Below, piece after piece: positions 42,703 through 50,005 of a DNA stretch of 64,000 bases (its first letter is position 1; the number at the start of each line of letters is the position of its first letter). Made by a program: the position numbers and the translations under genes. The stretch spans positions 11,403-75,402 of the forward strand of contig JBDKUN010000022.1 of the NCBI GenBank assembly GCA_039679675.1. The letters run 5' to 3'. This stretch comes from Armatimonadota bacterium. Lineage in GTDB: Bacteria > Armatimonadota > UBA5829 > DTLH01. Under the pieces are notes generated by a model. The model saw nothing but the letters and a program-made list of their open reading frames with translations. It was not told the DNA's origin and did no database searches.

Positions 42703-45063
42703 TTGCAATTTAAACACACAGATTTTGCTTCGGACTGCTTGCTGCCGAAGCGCGACACATTATGGCTGGTCGAACCGGCCAAAAGATGGATAGACGCTTT
42801 TCCGATAGGGAACGGCAGCATCGGCGCGATGATATTCGGGGGAACGGACACCGAACGGCTCGCATTAAATCATGAAAACCTCTGGAGAGGTGTCACGAAA
42901 GGCCGCACTGTCGAACCGAAGTACCAATATCTTCCTGAAATCCGTGAAAAGCTTCTTGCAGGCAAGTGGGTTGAAGGCGCGGAGCTTGCTACAAAGCATT
43001 TGAGCGGGCATGAACGGCGGGTGCAGCCATATCAGCCGGTTGGCGACCTCCGCCTGCACTTTAGCAGCCGTGCAGATGTAGAAAACTACGGCAGAACGCT
43101 CGATCTATCGACAGCCATAGCAGAAGTTAGCTACCGCGCGGGCGGTGTGACATATAAGCGCGAAACATTTGCATCCGCTGCCGATGGAGCCATAATCACA
43201 AGGGTCTCAGCCGATAAGCCGGGAGCAATCAGTGTAAAAATCGAGCTTGGACGGGTAGACAACCCCGAATGTGAACTCAAGCCGTGGTCAAATACGAATG
43301 GAATCGGCTTTACAGGCAGGTTCGTCGAAGGAATAGAGTTCGCGGTCGAGACCAGAGTCTATCCATCCGGTGGAAAAATCGCCGCAGGTGAAGGTGCAAA
43401 TATTCAGGTGTCCGGTGCGGATGAACTCCTCCTTGTGACTGCCATAGCGGTCGATTACAACCAGCCGGAGCCTGCCAAGTGGTGTTCGGAGCATCTGGAC
43501 AAAATCCCGGCGGATTTCGATACTCTAAAAGAACGGCATATTGCCGAGTACAAGCCACTCTATGACAGGGTGAGCTTCAATCTTGCTGCAAATGAAGAAG
43601 CGGAAAAATTGCCTCTCGATGTCCGGCTGGACAACCTCAGAAAAGGCGGAAACGATCCGGGGTTGTTCCCGCTCTATTTCAACTTTGGACGCTATCTGCT
43701 TCTCTCCAGCTCGCGAAAGTGCGACCAGCCCGCCAACCTGCAGGGCATCTGGAACGACGATATCCGGCCGCCATGGGACTCGGACATCCACAACGATATA
43801 AATGTCGAGATGAACTACTGGCCTGCCGAGGTGTGCAACCTTCCCGAATGCACCGAGCCGCTTTTCAATTACATGGAGCAAAGCGTCCCAGAAGGGACCA
43901 AGATCACAAAGAACCTTTACGGCTGCCGGGGCGTATGTTTTTGCATCCAGACTGACATTTGGGGCCGCCCTACCCCTGAAGCACCCGGTTGGGATGTCTG
44001 GACCGGTGCGGCGGCATGGCTTTCAGAGCATCTCTGGTGGCGGTACGAATATTCGCTCGACGAAAAGCTCTTGAAAGATAGAGTTTATCCCTTCCTCAAG
44101 TTGTGCGCTGAGTTCTACGAGGACTATCTGGTCAAGGATTCACTTGGAAGGCTTGTTACCGTCCCATCGCAGTCGCCTGAGAACTACTTCGCAGGCGGAG
44201 CAACGCCGGTCAGCCTGTGTGTCGGCGCAACAATGGACTTTCTCCTTATTCGCGAGGTGATGGAACGCTGCATCAAGGCAAGCGAGATACTCGGCATCGA
44301 CGAAGACCTTCGTCTAAAGTGGCATGAGATCCTGAATGGCATCCCGCCGTTTCAAGCCGGTAAATTCGGGCAGCTTCAGGAGTGGCTGGACGACCATGAG
44401 GAAGCCGAGCCGGGCCACAGGCATGTGTCGCATCTCATAGGCGTTTATCCCGGAGAGCAGATGACCCCGGAGACACTGCCGGAGATGTATAAGGCGGCTA
44501 GAGTGTCGCTTGAACGAAGGCTTGCGGCCGGAGGCGGCCACACCGGGTGGAGCAGGTCTTGGGTCTGCGCTCTCTGGGCGAGGTTCCTCGAAGGTGAGCT
44601 TGCCTACGAGCACCTTGTCTGCCTGATTACGGACTTTGCAACGAAAAGCCTGCTGGATACCCATCCGATGAACAACGAGTGGGGCTATGTCTTCGAGATA
44701 GACGGGAACTTCGGAGGGACAGCCGCCATCGCGGAACTTTTGATGCAAAGCTACGGCGGGACTATCCGCCTGCTGCCCGCGCTTCCTTCCAAATGGAAGA
44801 CTGGCTCAGTGAAGGGTCTGCGCGCAAAGGGCGGGTTCACGGTAGACATCAGTTGGAAAGACGGTACGCTCACTGAGGCCAGGATAACAAGCGATTTCGG
44901 GAAGCCATGCAGAATAATCTGCTCCAGTGGCGCGCTTTCCGTGACCAGCAATGGGACTGAACTGCCTGTGGAACGCGACACCAACGGCGGGTTCACCTTC
45001 CCCACCCTCCCCGACAGGGCGGTAGTGCTGAAGGCGGGAAAATCGAATGGAATCATCCAGTGA
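42703..45063 (+). CDS. GH95 alpha-L-fucosidase-like glycoside hydrolase
   Basis: PIGNGSIGAM, FGRYLL, PANLQGIW, NVEMNYW, HRHVSHL, EIDGNFG, GLRAKGG. Confidence 0.93.
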   Translation: MQFKHTDFASDCLLPKRDTLWLVEPAKRWIDAFPIGNGSIGAMIFGGTDTERLALNHENLWRGVTKGRTVEPKYQYLPEIREKLLAGKWVEGAELATKHLSGHERRVQPYQPVGDLRLHFSSRADVENYGRTLDLSTAIAEVSYRAGGVTYKRETFASAADGAIITRVSADKPGAISVKIELGRVDNPECELKPWSNTNGIGFTGRFVEGIEFAVETRVYPSGGKIAAGEGANIQVSGADELLLVTAIAVDYNQPEPAKWCSEHLDKIPADFDTLKERHIAEYKPLYDRVSFNLAANEEAEKLPLDVRLDNLRKGGNDPGLFPLYFNFGRYLLLSSSRKCDQPANLQGIWNDDIRPPWDSDIHNDINVEMNYWPAEVCNLPECTEPLFNYMEQSVPEGTKITKNLYGCRGVCFCIQTDIWGRPTPEAPGWDVWTGAAAWLSEHLWWRYEYSLDEKLLKDRVYPFLKLCAEFYEDYLVKDSLGRLVTVPSQSPENYFAGGATPVSLCVGATMDFLLIREVMERCIKASEILGIDEDLRLKWHEILNGIPPFQAGKFGQLQEWLDDHEEAEPGHRHVSHLIGVYPGEQMTPETLPEMYKAARVSLERRLAAGGGHTGWSRSWVCALWARFLEGELAYEHLVCLITDFATKSLLDTHPMNNEWGYVFEIDGNFGGTAAIAELLMQSYGGTIRLLPALPSKWKTGSVKGLRAKGGFTVDISWKDGTLTEARITSDFGKPCRIICSSGALSVTSNGTELPVERDTNGGFTFPTLPDRAVVLKAGKSNGIIQ

Positions 45064-45074
45064 CATATAAAATA

Positions 45075-45103
45075 TTGACAACTGATAGTCTGTAGGTTAT
45101 AAA
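45075..45103 (+). promoter_or_regulatory. Sigma-70 promoter
   Basis: TTGACA-17nt-TATAAA. Confidence 0.65.
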
Positions 45104-45109
45104 AAAGCT

Positions 45110-45170
45110 GGCCCGCAGCACTACTTGGGGCTGTTATAAGCAGTTTGAAGTAGTGCCTGCGGGCCTTTTT
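45110..45170 (+). promoter_or_regulatory. Promoter-proximal hairpin/U-tract element, copy 1
   Basis: GGCCCGCAGCACTACTT..AAGTAGTGCCTGCGGGCC-TTTTT; homologous to 57116-57187 and 55836-55901. Confidence 0.7.
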
Positions 45171-45219
45171 ATAGCATTAATTGTATACAATCGGTTTCAC
45201 TGATCTCGGAGGAATACCT

Positions 45220-46335
45220 GTGCGTAATTTTGTTCTTCTCACTGTAATACTACTAGGTTTTGCATCACTTGCGGTTCCGGCAAATGCCGGTTGGAACGTT
45301 TTGAACTTGTCCCAGCCAGAAAATAGCTTTGCTTGTGCGAAAAATATTAACGGCAATCAGGTAGTAGGATCAGTTTCTATTGGAAACGGCTGGCCGGGGT
45401 GGACGCATGCTTCTATGTGGACTCAGGGAAGCACAGGGTGGATCGATCTTAACCCCAGCGGCTCAGCGTATTCTGTAGCTAATGGTACGGATGGACAGAA
45501 GCAGACTGGTTACGCTTTTATAGGTGACAATATGCATGCAATACTCTGGACCGGCTCATCTAAAAATTATGTAGACCTGAACCCTTCAGGGGTCTTAGGT
45601 TCCAACGCGGAATCTGTCTACGGTAATCAACAAGTCGGAGGTGCTATGTATGACACCTCGTGGTCCGGAGTTAGCTTCGCCAGCTTATGGTATGGTTCAG
45701 CTGAGAGTTGGGTGAACCTAACACCGAAGGACTCAGGCGACTCGCGTGCTTATGGCACTGATGGAATCCATCAAGTAGGCTACGCTACGTTTAGCGGTAG
45801 TAATCATGCTGGAATATGGAGTGGAACTGCGGAAAGCTGGAGTGACCTGAACCCCATATCCGCAATAAGTTCACGCGCCTACGCTGTCCGAGGTAATCAG
45901 CAGGTAGGCTACGCCACCACTGCAGATTACTGGCGGCATGCGAGCTTGTGGAACGGCACATCTGATAGCTGGGTAGATTTGAACCCAGCCGCATCCGTCG
46001 AATCCAGCGCACTGGCATTATCATCAGGATATCAGGCCGGCTGGTTCAATACAGATGGTCTTGAGCGGGCATCCATATGGGCTGGGTCTGCAGACAGCAT
46101 GGTCGACCTTCATTCGCTTCTCGCTTCTGATACATACTGTAAGTCGTTAGCAACCGGCATTTCCATACAAGGCTCGGATATATTCGTGTCAGGATATGCA
46201 TATAACAGTTCAACGAACAAAGAAGAAGCAATTCTGTGGCATTATACATCTGATGTTCCCGAGCCTTCGGGCATCCTTTCGCTACTCTTCGGCCTTGGTG
46301 GATTCGGCGGCATGATGCTGCGGAGGAAAGATTAA
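45220..46335 (+). CDS. PEP-CTERM protein with HAF-like repeats
   Basis: GGAGG then GTG; signal peptide; ~44-aa repeats (HAxLWxG..WVDLNP..QQVG); VPEPS-TM-RRKD. Confidence 0.92.
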   Translation: MRNFVLLTVILLGFASLAVPANAGWNVLNLSQPENSFACAKNINGNQVVGSVSIGNGWPGWTHASMWTQGSTGWIDLNPSGSAYSVANGTDGQKQTGYAFIGDNMHAILWTGSSKNYVDLNPSGVLGSNAESVYGNQQVGGAMYDTSWSGVSFASLWYGSAESWVNLTPKDSGDSRAYGTDGIHQVGYATFSGSNHAGIWSGTAESWSDLNPISAISSRAYAVRGNQQVGYATTADYWRHASLWNGTSDSWVDLNPAASVESSALALSSGYQAGWFNTDGLERASIWAGSADSMVDLHSLLASDTYCKSLATGISIQGSDIFVSGYAYNSSTNKEEAILWHYTSDVPEPSGILSLLFGLGGFGGMMLRRKD

Positions 46336-46400: not shown

Positions 46401-47825
46401 GTGTTGACTGTGAGATACGCTTTAAGGCTATTTCTGTCTGTAATTCTTTTATCAGGCTTCCTCTTACCATCAGAGGCTGTTGTTCTTCAGCCGGGAACGT
46501 ATAAGCTGGCCTGGACTACATCCGAAGACATCAGCAAAACCATCTGCCAGTCCTTAATACTTGATGTAGCTGCGCAGGATAATGGTGTACCTGCCATAAA
46601 TGGACTGAAGTCTGCCAAATATCTTCGATGTGGACCCGATGAAAACTGTTACTTAAGGATGGTTCTGGATGAGTCCAATGGAACGGGCAAAGGCTACGAT
46701 GTTGCATACATATCACTGGCTACATCAGGTAAATTGACTGATGTAGCTCAGGCCATCAAGCTGCCGCTAAGGAAAAGCAACAACGCTCCACTGATGTGGA
46801 AAGATGTCAAAGTGCTGGAATCCGACAAATTCACACTGGACATACCTTACACATCGTCAAATATCATACGCAAAACTACTATTTCGCTGGAGATCGATAT
46901 ATTCGACGATGGCAATATAACCGGCACTGCAGCAATAAATCTCTGGTCGGGCTGGAGCGGGGTTATCAAGACAGATGGCGAAGACCTGAAAGTCATCCTT
47001 GATGATCAGAATGCAGATGGGCTATTCGAGAAAAATTCATCCAATCAAGCAATAGACGGTACAACTCCGTGTTTGAACGATTATTTATGGATAGGCAAGC
47101 ACAATGGACAGTGCGAATGCAGCGATTGCAAGTCCATTATGCTGGGAGGCGTTTCATCTTACGGTAACAAGCTCTATATAATCAATGTTAAACCGTCAGG
47201 TGAGGAAATTGAGATTAAACCATATACGGGACCAAGTGGAACGGTAAAATTCAATGCAGTCGACGGCTATAATAAACCAGCAAAGTGCTACGCCACCATT
47301 CATGGTAAAGAAGGGGTTTTCGAACTACTGGATAACGGCAAAGAAACGCAGATCCCTGCCGGTGTTTACAAGGCATCACCGTTTGTCATTATCGAACCTG
47401 AGCAAAACAAGGCATCAGATAAAGGATTCTACATTTTTAAGAGAGCCAACCTTGAAATAACAGTCCAACCTAAAAAAACGGTCACAATAGATGCTGGCGG
47501 ACCTGTCACTTTATCTATTAATTCGGAAAAAGACGCTGTCACGGCAAAAGTCGGCCAGGAAATAAAGATTCCCCTTGATATAAAGCAAAAAAATGAGAAG
47601 GTGGTTATTTTCAGCGAAAAAAAACCTGTTGTAAGCATCTATAACTCTGCCGGTAAGCGGCTAAAAAGCGGTAAAGGGAAGTTTGGGTGAGGCGGAGTCT
47701 GTGAGTATTCCGTGCGAATACCTTCGAATTGGAAACCCGGCACCTATAAGATCAGTGCAAGCATCGATCTGAGACCTTACCAGGATCAAATCTCAGCAAA
47801 GAAGACATTGAAGATCGTAAAGTGA
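46401..47825 (+). CDS. Secreted protein, probable selenoprotein (Sec at TGA 47688-47690)
   Basis: Signal peptide; FG-TGA-GGVCEYSVRIP frame stays open for 44 codons; SECIS-like hairpin 47705-47721. Confidence 0.78.
47705..47721 (+). promoter_or_regulatory. Candidate bacterial SECIS hairpin
   Basis: GTATTC-CGTGC-GAATAC; loop starts 20 nt after UGA with G at loop position 2. Confidence 0.6.
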
Positions 47826-47831
47826 GCCGGT

Positions 47832-47927
47832 TGATAGACCGAGGGAACCATGCCTCGGTCTAGGGGTTGGTTAAGGGCATGGATGCCCTGGAGAATAAGG
47901 CTCGGGGCATGGATCCCCCGAGCCATC
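47832..47927. repeat. REPIN-like composite repeat, copy 1
   Basis: About 91 nt nearly identical to 51200-51290. Confidence 0.9.
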
Positions 47928-48001
47928 TGGTTGGTCGCCTCGCGCATTATGTTCATCTATTAAAATGACGCAAAAGATGACGTACGATGATCACGCATTA
48001 A

Positions 48002-50005
48002 TTGAAGGAGAATCGCTTGAAAACTCAGATTTTGCCAGCTGAATTGGAGACGATTGCAGTTACGGTAAACGACAACGGAATAACCATTCGCAGTGCTAGT
48101 GGGTCCGTTATAGAGGGATGTAATCTTAGTCTGCATTGGAGATATCCCGGTGAAGAAGAGTGGCGGATTACAGATGCTGAGAGCCTATACGATTTAAAGT
48201 GCACAGCTGGTGCTGTTGAATTTTCATGCCGGTTCGGTGACATAATTGCTCGTGTAAGGGTTTGTGGTTCAGGAGAACAAAGGTCCTGGCAGTTCTCCGG
48301 CAAACTCATAAGCGATGCGAGCCAGCCGTTGGAGCTTGCGAGGTTTTGCTATCTTGTCGGCGAAGTCCCGGATGACCTCAACTTTCTTGAGCTGCTTGGA
48401 TCAAGGGAAAAACCCGTTTTGCGGAAACCAGGGGATTCACTGCCATCATACAGGCAGGATGTTGAGGCTTTCTGGGCTTCAATGGGTGTTAAATGGCTGA
48501 GGATGCCCGATACGATTCACGATGTCTCTGACTGGGCGGTATCCAAAGACATCGCAGCTTTTCTCCCCGAATGGAATGGCTCAGGATGGGGGTTTTGTTT
48601 TGTCGGTCCCGGCACTGCGTTCGGCGAGATCGGCTATAAAACAACCGGAAAGCCATCAGCCTTTTATGTCGGAGTCCTGCTCGATAACTTGCTGATCGAC
48701 CCGGGCGAGGAGCGGTTGCTCGAAACTGCCTGTGTGTGGTACGGTGATTGGCAAGAAGGGTTTCGTCTGTGGGCGAAGACCTGTGCCAATCATGCAGGAG
48801 TTCGGAATGCGCATCCTGCGCTCACCGGTTATTGCTCTTGGTATCAGTTTCACACGAAGATAACTCCAGAAGAAATATTGCAAGCTAACGATGAATTTGC
48901 TGATTGGCCGGTTGGCTCAGGAAATCGTACCATCCAGATTGATGATGGTTTTCAGGTTGCTCCGGGTGACTGGGCCCCTAATGAGCGGTTCAAGGAGATT
49001 TGGCCTGATCTGCCAGGCCGTATCGCTGCTAAAGGCTCACTTCCAGGGCTATGGCTTGCGCCCAGCATAATACACGAGACGCATTCTATTGCAGCCGAAC
49101 ATCCAGAATGGCTGCAAAGGCTGGCATGCGGAGAATTTGCGATTTCTTTTGCAAACTGGGGTGGCGATACGTATTATCTTGATGCTGACCATCCCGATGC
49201 ACAGGAGTTTATGAGGAAGAACTTTGCTGCTTTTGTCGCTGAGGGATGGAAGTATTTCAAGATCGACTTCACCTATCCAGTGAGCACTGCACGGCAGGCG
49301 TTCGACCGAAAGAAAACGTCATTTGAGACCCTGCGCGGTATGTATCGGCTTTTCCGCGAGACCTGCGGTGATGAGATTCTCTTATCAGCCTGTATAGGAG
49401 TGCCGGGCCGATATGCTCTCGGTTATGCGGACATCGCAAGGTTGGGCGGCGACATCGAGACATCCTGGGAAGCAGTTCAGACTACCGTGAGGGCATGGAT
49501 TACCTGGGGGTGCACCAATGGTGTTTGGTGGTTGGGTGATCCGGACGTTTTTCTGATGCGAACGGAGAATTCATCGCTTTCATTCGAGGAAAACTATCTG
49601 CTGACGGGCACAATAGGACTCTTTGGCGGGTTATTTCTCACTTCAGACTTGCCTTCTCAATGGTCTCCTGAAGCTGTAGCCGCAGTGAAGGAGTTCTGGA
49701 ATGAGCACAACCCGCGGACACCGGTTTCACATCGGGCTCTCTGGGACGATCGAGGTATGATTCAGGCATATCGTGTGAGCGTAGAAGAAGGCGGAAACCT
49801 GTATCACGCAATTGGGGTCTACAACTGGGCTGACGATGTTCGCGATATGACCATTTCACTCAAAGATGTGGGATTACAGCCCTCGCTCAATTGGAACCTG
49901 CAGGCGACGTCACACAGCGAACAGATGCAGTTGATCGATGGGGTTTTGAGAGTGCCTCTTCTTCCGAGACACAGCCTGAGGATAGCAAAACTGTCGCTTA
50001 GGTAA
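48002..50005 (+). CDS. Alpha-galactosidase-like glycoside hydrolase (GH36/GH27 clan)
   Basis: GYCSWYQ, IQIDDGFQ, PGLWLAP, YFKIDF, RLGGD; start could be 48017. Confidence 0.8.
   Translation: MKENRLKTQILPAELETIAVTVNDNGITIRSASGSVIEGCNLSLHWRYPGEEEWRITDAESLYDLKCTAGAVEFSCRFGDIIARVRVCGSGEQRSWQFSGKLISDASQPLELARFCYLVGEVPDDLNFLELLGSREKPVLRKPGDSLPSYRQDVEAFWASMGVKWLRMPDTIHDVSDWAVSKDIAAFLPEWNGSGWGFCFVGPGTAFGEIGYKTTGKPSAFYVGVLLDNLLIDPGEERLLETACVWYGDWQEGFRLWAKTCANHAGVRNAHPALTGYCSWYQFHTKITPEEILQANDEFADWPVGSGNRTIQIDDGFQVAPGDWAPNERFKEIWPDLPGRIAAKGSLPGLWLAPSIIHETHSIAAEHPEWLQRLACGEFAISFANWGGDTYYLDADHPDAQEFMRKNFAAFVAEGWKYFKIDFTYPVSTARQAFDRKKTSFETLRGMYRLFRETCGDEILLSACIGVPGRYALGYADIARLGGDIETSWEAVQTTVRAWITWGCTNGVWWLGDPDVFLMRTENSSLSFEENYLLTGTIGLFGGLFLTSDLPSQWSPEAVAAVKEFWNEHNPRTPVSHRALWDDRGMIQAYRVSVEEGGNLYHAIGVYNWADDVRDMTISLKDVGLQPSLNWNLQATSHSEQMQLIDGVLRVPLLPRHSLRIAKLSLR

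Follow-up and report, generated by a model that had tools for sequence, protein, structure and literature searches.

Within a 64,000-nucleotide (nt) stretch of an Armatimonadota genome (contig JBDKUN010000022.1 of assembly GCA_039679675.1; hereafter the window, taken from genome G000), a gene of otherwise ordinary appearance is interrupted by a TGA codon at positions 47688-90, and our analysis of the sequence and its relatives indicates, with a probability of about 0.9, that this TGA is a selenocysteine (Sec) codon in a real exported protein. The protein belongs to a new selenoprotein family without a Pfam or NCBIfam model, and the Sec decoding itself is of a known kind. In the proposed mechanism, SelB with Sec-tRNA(Sec) would bind a hairpin at 47705-21 with its G-rich apical loop 20 nt past the UGA, Sec would be inserted at UGA 47688-90, and translation would proceed for 44 codons to the stop at 47823-25. 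The predicted product is a protein of ~471 amino acids (aa) with a signal-peptide-like N-terminus and three beta-sandwich domains, the last of them MG2-like, where Sec would form the tip of a beta-hairpin loop rich in Gly (F-G-U-G-G-x-C). We consider this explanation as a whole to be very probable, nearly as firmly as the assignment of the codon.

The table-11 open reading frame (ORF) occupies 46401..47690 of the forward strand and yields 429 aa, the last residues being ...SGKGKFG before TGA 47688-90. When this TGA is read as U, the frame continues as GGVCEYSVRIPSNWKPGTYKISASIDLRPYQDQISAKKTLKIVK over 44 codons and ends at the true stop codon, TGA 47823..47825 (+), which is exactly where similarity to the ortholog in G001, the genome of another species in the same genus (90% identity), comes to an end. 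An earlier note, made from the window sequence alone, had described both the truncated ORF and the open frame beyond it, and re-reading the sequence bears out both. The mechanical ORF start is GTG 46401; GTG 46410 is the likelier start because a Shine-Dalgarno-like GAGAGG at 46396-401 lies 8 nt 5′ of it, the G001 ortholog ORF begins at the equivalent MRY, and the ESM Atlas record begins at residue 4. The full selenoprotein coding sequence, taken from the sequence and its read-through translation, is therefore 46410..47825 (+), giving ~471 aa including Sec in place of the 474 aa that the note had proposed. The putative Sec codon (47688..47690, +) is residue 430, numbered from 46401, in the motif F-G-U-G-G-V-C. 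As the note had also stated, TGA is a normal stop in the window, where it terminates 9 other long ORFs of 33. Between G000 and G001, the 44 codons 3′ of the UGA differ by 6 synonymous changes and 1 non-synonymous change, compared with 23 synonymous and 42 non-synonymous changes in the 426 codons 5′ of it, and similarity ceases wholly at the second stop. We also considered the second TGA (47823) as a Sec codon and rejected it, since the hairpin that follows it is a palindrome of the repetitive extragenic palindromic (REP) type and the sequence beyond is unconserved in G001.

The interruption recurs at the homologous site across the family. A six-frame search of 61 related genomes returned 33 matches in 18 genomes, exactly one TGA being present in 18 of the 33 matches. 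When a C-terminal-domain profile was run against 401 genomes that sample the phylum, it gave 103 matches in 64 genomes (40 of 207 genera); 90 of these matches contain exactly one TGA and 13 contain none, the TGA forms being spread over 55 genomes. Diverged homologs thus keep TGA and not Trp, Arg or Gly, and a Cys form, FGCGGVC, occurs in a genome that lacks the Sec machinery (G220), in line with the states that the earlier note had anticipated. From fetched loci of family members we extracted 38 distinct TGA-bearing sequences, and in all of them the motif [FY][GT]-U-G-G-x-C-x-Y-x-[VG]-x-[IV]-P holds the TGA. The stops of homologs lie 35-44 codons past U in most cases and may be TAA, TAG or TGA, with the frame running ~250 residues beyond U in two family genes. 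Conservation extends to both sides of the UGA, again as anticipated, with P446, G447, Y449 and D456 invariant downstream of Sec in the full-length alignment. The Cys at +4 from Sec (47700..47702, + strand, in the window), a likely selenylsulfide or chelation partner, is present in 31 of the 38 distinct Sec forms; Cys lies at +5 or +6 in 2, at -3 (giving C-x-x-U) in 2, and nowhere nearby in 3. The proposal that Sec is accompanied by a neighboring Cys is therefore correct for most of the family, though not universally.

The TGA forms also follow the Sec machinery, for which we give raw counts from related genomes that are not independent of one another. A selA match (E<=1e-30) is found in 53 of the 55 genomes with TGA forms, compared with 218 of the 401 overall, and the two TGA-form genomes without one (G127 and G225) have selB at 407 and 410.6 bits, such that selA or selB is present in 55 of 55. 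Nine genomes have non-TGA forms only, and selA is missing in five of them. One of those five is G220 (locus L066), which has Cys in place of Sec (FGCGGVCEYSG), no selA and no selB above cut-off. In G000 itself (3.14 Mb, 98.5% complete), selA (563.2 bits), selD (380.6 bits) and selB (370.2 bits) are adjacent on contig C33, all above curated cut-offs, and a tRNA-Sec on contig C42 scores 68.4 bits, also above cut-off, and is called by ARAGORN as tRNA-SeC with anticodon tca. The check for Sec machinery that the earlier note had suggested is thereby answered for selA, selB, selD and tRNA-Sec. SelD in this genome is a 537-aa fusion (G000:C33:98455-100068; L074:8456-10069, -) with a Cys-rich N-terminal extension, and its C-terminal part is a carboxymuconolactone decarboxylase/AhpD-like domain (Pfam CMD, 53 bits); it is of the Cys type, as it has no internal stop codon. 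The commonest bacterial selenoprotein is formate dehydrogenase alpha, for which the model TIGR01553 (E<=1e-10) has no match in G000, which is 98.5% complete and retains the whole Sec machinery. For the Planctomycetes, a published study of selenoproteins mentions FdhA and FmdB (PMC4807772).

A selenocysteine insertion sequence (SECIS)-type hairpin follows the UGA at 47705..47721 (+), with the stem GUAUUC/GAAUAC and the loop CGUGC formed by the codons of (E)Y-S-V-R-I-P. Its parts, GTATTC (47705-10), CGTGC (47711-15) and GAATAC (47716-21), and the start of the loop 20 nt past the UGA agree with what the earlier note had described. The published bacterial SECIS (bSECIS) model specifies a loop of 3-9 nt, a stem of 4-16 bp, a G in the first two loop positions, and a distance of 16-37 nt from the UGA (PMC13188914). 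The window copy lies within this geometry (5-nt loop CGUGC, 6-bp stem, 20-nt spacing), as do 38 of 38 relatives, in which the loop is 3-5 nt long with G first or second and starts 20-24 nt past the UGA. Like known coding-region bSECIS genes (PMC13188914), the family combines an in-frame UGA and a small-loop stem with an early G with dependence on selA, selB, selC and selD; in contrast to these, the window stem is minimal (6 bp, -4.3 kcal/mol) and is built from the codons of the conserved peptide Y-S-V-R-I-P. An Rfam scan of 47500-48000 at E<=10 gave no match at the hairpin.

As the note had expected, the hairpin is conserved in the relatives, and it shows compensatory changes there. Among the 38 distinct sequences, an 8-pair helix is 82.2% paired versus 71.6 +/- 1.0 in shuffles, with 0 of 500 shuffles reaching the observed value; double-sided changes occur in 8 of 8 pairs, the covariation score is 0.352 versus 0.154, and slid controls are 30-55% paired. 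Three core pairs are without an unpaired cell in the 38 sequences, their types being CG 21/UA 17; UA 30/GC 4/AU 2/CG 1/GU 1; and CG 33/UA 3/UG 2. The first core pair couples the wobble base of a Tyr codon to the first base of an Ile/Val codon (UAU-AUA, UAC-GUA), a covariation for which protein selection is no explanation. Amino acids also swap together with the pairing, from Y..I to C..T (UGU/ACA) and from Y..V to G..A (GGC/GCC), with further coupled swaps in the hairpin peptide from S..R to V..D, T..G or L..K. For the coupled residues it is thus the RNA and not the protein that dictates the choice. To the 38 sequences we added an independent set from a scan with an exact degenerate pattern of one genome per species, covering 185,579 species, which found 98 stretches, 80 of them listed, where by our arithmetic ~0.5 matches would be expected under uniform base composition. 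Among 68 sequences new to the analysis, pairs 25-33, 26-32 and 24-34, which the pattern leaves unconstrained, form in 61, 66 and 61, respectively, above the shuffle maxima of 54, 62 and 55 of 68. Among non-Sec homologs, the Cys form retains a 5-bp hairpin relic, two others retain weak relics, and the rest have none.

Several observations weigh against Sec decoding at this site. The hairpin of the window copy is weak by itself, its -4.3 kcal/mol lying above the -7.5 of the published model, which asks for a minimum free energy of -7.5 kcal/mol or lower (PMC13188914); 21 of the 38 relatives reach that value on the local 25-nt segment. In a 60-nt fold its pair probability is 0.12, and the extended structure, when enforced, has -10.0, the minimum free energy of -10.8 belonging to another fold. 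Of the 2191 TGA triplets in the window, 14% are followed by a hairpin that has this geometry and a stem of 6 bp or more (3.1% if pure Watson-Crick), and the real stop at 47823 is also followed by a hairpin of this geometry, namely the REP. Since the single hairpin in the window is not beyond chance, the case for a SECIS rests on the relatives. In addition, homologs with Cys in place of Sec are few, an unusual situation in a selenoprotein family: there is 1 among the 13 non-TGA matches, and Cys stands at the Sec column in 6 of 85 read-through representatives, few of them motif-like. Residues at this column in non-Sec homologs are varied (W 8, S 8, I 7 and C 6 of 72, with others), indicating that the fold does not need Sec. 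Both W and C, each one base from TGA, are over-represented at the Sec column of read-through homologs, and Arg, also one base from TGA, stands there in some of them (for example P0028, P0029, P0023, P0068 and P0007). The occurrence of Trp, Cys and Arg suggests that Sec may have been lost repeatedly by point mutation.

The family is large. At E<=1e-3 the whole-protein profile retrieves 2017 representatives (50% clusters); the number falls to 657 at 1e-10 and to 171 at 1e-30. Within the best 150 of the 2017, 61 end exactly before U (...FG, ...YT, ...YG and similar), 2 are borderline and 85 read through. A 90%-identical public protein of 426 aa is named 'hypothetical protein', and a look-up of homologous proteins gave 4 matches, none with an informative name. 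By record title, the 80 listed stretches from the pattern scan comprise 17 of Verrucomicrobiota type (including Akkermansia and Kiritimatiellia labels), 17 Planctomycetota, 15 Lentisphaerae/Victivallales, 15 labelled Armatimonadota and 12 unlabelled, along with 1 each from Sumerlaeota, WS1, Hydrogenedentes and Acidobacteriaceae, the last of which looks like a chance match. Family architectures include the ~470-aa form of the window, larger forms (830-1100 aa) carrying CarboxypepD_reg repeats or CBM9 at the N-terminus, proteins fused to BlaR1/M56 membrane sensor-transducers, and two short forms of ~240-280 aa. The ~470-aa module forms the outer part of BlaR1/M56 sensor-transducers in representatives P0043 and P0061, and stands behind CarboxypepD_reg arrays, sometimes with CBM9, in P0047, P0059, P0068, P0086, P0102, P0120, P0127 and P0144. 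In one metagenome-assembled genome labelled Phycisphaerales, no fewer than 8 contigs (loci L104, L111, L117, L127, L131, L134, L135 and L138) bear the Sec motif GKM-E/A-F/Y-G-U-G-G-x-C-E-Y-S-G-G-V-P, a large expansion of paralogs.

Comparison with catalogued families supports novelty. When four architectures of the family were tested against NCBIfam at E<=1, the read-through protein and the short paralogs each matched 0 families, and the large form matched nothing relevant. A U-G-G-x-C, MG2 or Ig-like exported family is found neither among the 119 prokaryotic selenoprotein families of a 2026 catalogue (PMC13188914 Table 1) nor among the 87 families of a 2022 one (PMC9312934 Table 1), a comparison whose scope is these two tables. 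The catalogued families are mostly thioredoxin-like, whereas the family described here is all-beta. The nearest in character are the DUF1573 protein (UGC), TsoA (LULAxC) and the UGSC protein, which likewise have a single Sec beside Gly and/or Cys; TsoA shares the U-x3-C spacing, and DUF1573 is also a beta-sandwich domain. None of their models (UGSC NF041046, TsoA NF045695, DUF1573 PF07610) matches the read-through protein. The phyla of the family go unmentioned in excerpts of the BSepDB and deep-Sep (PMC12013277) papers, and the latter describes the reliance of search methods on Sec/Cys pairs. Methods of this kind tend to overlook the family because its Cys homologs are rare, and this rarity, together with the shortness of the hairpin, is probably why it has been missed so far.

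Structural models indicate that the sequence beyond the UGA is needed for a complete domain. The N-terminus, MRYALRLFLSVILLSGFLLPSEA (46410..46478, +), is a putative signal peptide consisting of basic residues, a hydrophobic run and then SEA, and homologs have similar N-termini. The whole-protein model, made from a 10-sequence alignment, is all-beta (predicted local distance difference test (pLDDT) 75.9; predicted template-modeling score (pTM) 0.67), and its sole helix, residues 3-17, is followed by a stretch with pLDDT <50. U430 is modeled in a loop (429-433) between strands 420-428 and 434-439. The last, MG2-/Ig-like beta-sandwich domain (residues ~350-474; 47448..47822, +), modeled alone from a 38-sequence alignment, has a pLDDT of 88.7 and eight strands, four of which lie around or after the UGA, such that the domain would be complete only with read-through. 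These models agree with the earlier note, which had held that the extension completes a beta-sandwich and that the protein is exported and of non-thioredoxin fold, the only helix being the signal-like one at the N-terminus. In place of a thioredoxin-like alpha/beta fold with UxxC or CxxU, the model is all-beta and the motif U-x3-C. From the N-terminus, the protein is probably exported. The CECSDC cluster that the note had also pointed out is present in the window protein and is found only in the two species of the genus; it is not a family feature, and we rejected it as a functional site because it is genus-specific.

The note had been unable to assign a family; there is no NCBIfam match, and the match to Pfam MG2 is sub-threshold. 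The MG2 model (PF01835) gives E 0.0018 and 19.1 bits for the full protein and 22.1 bits for the domain alone, below the gathering threshold of 32.8, and MG2 matches at E<=0.01 occur in 10 of 38 family members. In fold, the last domain comes closest to MG domains (from bacterial and human alpha-2-macroglobulin, from complement C3/C4/C5 and from TEP1) and to S-layer and other Ig-like domains, at Z 9.5-11.7 and Foldseek TM 0.5-0.6 (for example 4u48_A, Z 11.7, root-mean-square deviation (rmsd) 10.3, 112 aligned; and 2p9r_B, Z 9.9, rmsd 2.6, 95 aligned). Because these matches are no better than those to generic Ig-like folds, the MG likeness denotes a fold class and not membership. The Sec-bearing domain thus shares its fold with the MG domains of alpha-2-macroglobulin and complement C3/C4/C5 and with CARDB and S-layer sandwiches, but differs from the alpha-2-macroglobulin/complement proteins in having neither a thioester domain nor a CGEQ motif, in addition to its sub-threshold MG2 score. 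Profile searches of PDB sequences with two family alignments gave nothing below E 0.03, and fold searches with Foldseek and VIA returned only generic Ig, MG, S-layer and adhesin sandwiches without a functional lead. In the ESM Atlas, the table-11 ORF falls in uncharacterized clusters, in which Verrucomicrobiota or Planctomycetota is the commonest phylum, with a weak GEVED lead.

The family has a second member in G000, a 237-aa form with the motif FKYGUGGTC, whose gene lies 133 nt upstream of selA. The operon (minus strand, G000:C33:96185-103400; L074:5363-13378; also L024) runs in the order 80-aa membrane protein, NapH/MauN-like protein, short Sec protein, selA, selD, selB and methyltransferase. 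In the NapH/MauN-like protein, Pfam identifies two Fer4_5 domains and a 4Fe-4S dicluster (61.6 bits), and its NCBIfam NapH matches are below cut-off. In the 47 genomes with listed selA coordinates, the distance from a TGA-form gene to selA is <=1 kb in 11, <=5 kb in 14 and <=~10 kb in 18, and the 11 closest genes span five families of the phylum. Among 15 fetched loci, 8 have a Fer4_5 gene immediately upstream of the gene, or genes, for the short Sec protein, and in a further two it lies nearby.

The 80-aa single-pass membrane protein at the head of this operon (G000:C33 ~103078-103377; L024:2985-3284, -) is itself, on the evidence of its sequence, a candidate for a second new selenoprotein, with Sec one residue from the C-terminus. 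It ends A-C-P-T, TGA, Leu, stop; the C-P-T-TGA-Leu ending is found in 11 genomes, with Gly replacing Leu in one, and C-P-T-U is a classic CxxU motif. Other loci with this protein are L041, L056, L057, L059, L061, L063, L075, L076, L077 and L086. Its Leu codon varies synonymously (CUG, CUU, CUC, CUA), which argues for translation past the TGA. With Sec one residue from the C-terminus, the SECIS of the 80-aa gene must lie beyond the stop, and a hairpin is found 18-25 nt downstream, as GAUUAUGG-GGU-CCAUAAUC, or as GCCAUGG-GGK-CCAUGGC in GC-rich genomes. This hairpin is 95.3% paired versus 89.7% in shuffles, with double changes in 3 pairs, in a set of only 11 sequences, and the Fer4_5 gene has its AUG within it. 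The 80-aa protein is without a match in Pfam or NCBIfam. The C-terminal 'star' selenoproteins (KCU-star and UXX-star; PMC13188914 Table 1) similarly have Sec near the C-terminus, but the 80-aa protein is a different, single-pass membrane protein, with a hairpin that overlaps the following gene's start codon.

The window gene itself stands apart from this operon. Upstream (42703-46335 of the window) are a GH95 fucosidase (506 bits) and a 384-aa PEP-CTERM protein with repeated ..GNQQVGYA.. units, and downstream (48002-50005) is a protein with a weak melibiase match. These surroundings are a polysaccharide-degradation and surface-protein neighborhood and give no operon clue to function. A REP-like palindrome, GATAGACCGAGG..CCTCGGTCTA, occurs at 3 sites in the window, each matched on both strands, with 0 in shuffles. 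One copy (46345-76) lies just 3′ of the stop of the upstream gene (46335), another (47833..47864, without strand assignment) just 3′ of the second stop of the selenoprotein gene (47825), after its real end, and the third is at 50699-730; no copy follows the first stop. The earlier observation that the REP trails the second stop and not the first is therefore correct. Further downstream of the copy at 47833-64 lies a second GC-rich inverted repeat (~47875-47925).

The function that we prefer is put forward tentatively, at somewhat less than even odds: a selenylsulfide-forming U-x3-C loop would carry out extracytoplasmic redox chemistry, fed in the operon copies by the NapH-like and CxxU proteins. 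At a similarly cautious level, Sec and the Cys at +4 may form either a redox-active selenylsulfide or a soft-ligand site outside the cytoplasm. This interpretation draws on the nearby Cys in 35 of 38 Sec forms, the paralogs upstream of selA-selD-selB, and their NapH/MauN-like and C-P-T-U-L neighbors, an arrangement that resembles a relay carrying electrons to the outer side of the membrane. The window copy, a stand-alone longer paralog among PEP-CTERM and glycoside hydrolase genes, would probably act at the cell surface. It is possible, if doubtful, that the U-G-G-x-C proteins serve as the outer arm of a module for selenol-based redox chemistry or selenium handling outside the cytoplasm, one that is genetically joined to the Sec-biosynthesis operon, the window protein being a surface-deployed paralog. 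Such a module would consist of the membrane-anchored C-P-T-U-L protein, the NapH-like polyferredoxin and one to three exported Sec proteins. Four points speak against this view of the function: the window gene is away from the sel operon and from any Fer4_5 gene, 7 of 38 Sec forms lack the +4 Cys, the fold searches lead to generic Ig/MG sandwiches and to no enzymatic analogue, and the linkage to selA could reflect only the co-expression of the machinery with its main client.

The alternative that fares best accepts Sec and assigns it a role in binding. Here the protein would be a periplasmic or surface chaperone, scavenger or carrier that binds a soft metal or metalloid (Cu(I), Hg, As) or a selenium species, without thiol-type redox chemistry. 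We regard this as rather unlikely, and hold the same view of its more detailed version, in which the G-U-G-G loop would be a carrier arm and the sel-linked paralogs would capture or reduce selenium for SelD. The U-x3-C pair on a beta-sandwich resembles periplasmic metal chaperones, and the BlaR1/M56 fusions suggest a ligand-binding outer domain. Binding is also favored by the SelD-AhpD/CMD fusion, by the methyltransferase gene after selB, and by the tie between the paralogs and selA-selD-selB, which is seen in five or more families of the phylum; indeed, a binding or carrier role explains the selA-selD-selB tie about equally well as a redox role. Several catalogued selenoproteins are metal-binding proteins (PMC13188914 Table 1), which points the same way. 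Weighing against binding, no metal-site fold match stands out, and the NapH-like partner points to electron transfer. An analogy, and no more than that, can be drawn with SoxY, an Ig-like exported sulfur-carrier whose Gly-flanked carrier Cys (GGCGG) sits on a C-terminal arm. Like the family protein, SoxY is an exported beta-sandwich presenting one Gly-flanked reactive chalcogen residue, but the Sec of the family is in an internal hairpin loop and the PDB profile searches gave no link.

Less probable still is that the Sec-Cys pair has no chemistry of its own and serves only as a structural selenylsulfide staple in a protein of surface or adhesin-like type. The fold neighbors (adhesins, S-layer proteins and MG domains), the fusions to CarboxypepD_reg repeats and CBM9, and the retention of the fold with other residues at the site in non-Sec homologs would all suit a staple. 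However, Sec is costly where Cys would serve, yet Cys forms are rare, and redox turnover is what the linkage to a CxxU protein and an iron-sulfur membrane protein points to.

The remaining alternatives dispute Sec itself. A UGA that is read through, or reassigned, by a near-cognate tRNA as Trp, Gly or Cys would be compatible with the glycines that flank the site and with the W (8) and C (6) of 72 at this column in non-Sec homologs, both one base from TGA. We consider it very improbable, given that TGA stops 9 other long ORFs of the window and this gene itself, that TGA forms are found only where selA or selB is present (55 of 55), that a covarying hairpin of SECIS geometry follows the codon, and that a genome without the machinery (G220) has TGC instead. 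That the TGA is a nonsense mutation, a pseudogene feature or an assembly error, with the frame past 47688 a decaying remnant, would fit the ending of the gene at 47688 by gene callers and the insignificance of a lone weak hairpin by itself, but its chance is close to nil in light of a TGA at the homologous site in 90 of 103 matches from 55 genomes and in 98 stretches among 185,579 species, stronger purifying selection on the extension than on the gene body (6 synonymous : 1 non-synonymous), and models in which the beta-sandwich needs the extension.

Our findings describe a large family of secreted proteins that gene annotation systematically cuts short and labels as hypothetical, ~40% of the best 150 ending at the Sec codon. 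They add a non-thioredoxin, all-beta and, to judge from the N-terminus, extracytoplasmic setting for selenocysteine, and offer an unusually clear case of RNA structure dictating the residues allowed in a conserved peptide. The tie between the paralogs, the NapH-like and CxxU proteins and selA-selD-selB provides a hypothesis on selenium use in bacteria without formate dehydrogenase. If the module is real, it would represent a new pathway and add two new selenoprotein families, and translation of the gene next to the 80-aa protein could respond to SelB and selenium, because the SECIS overlaps its start codon. The module may then be the main reason that FdhA-less Verrucomicrobiota, Planctomycetota and Armatimonadota keep the Sec machinery.

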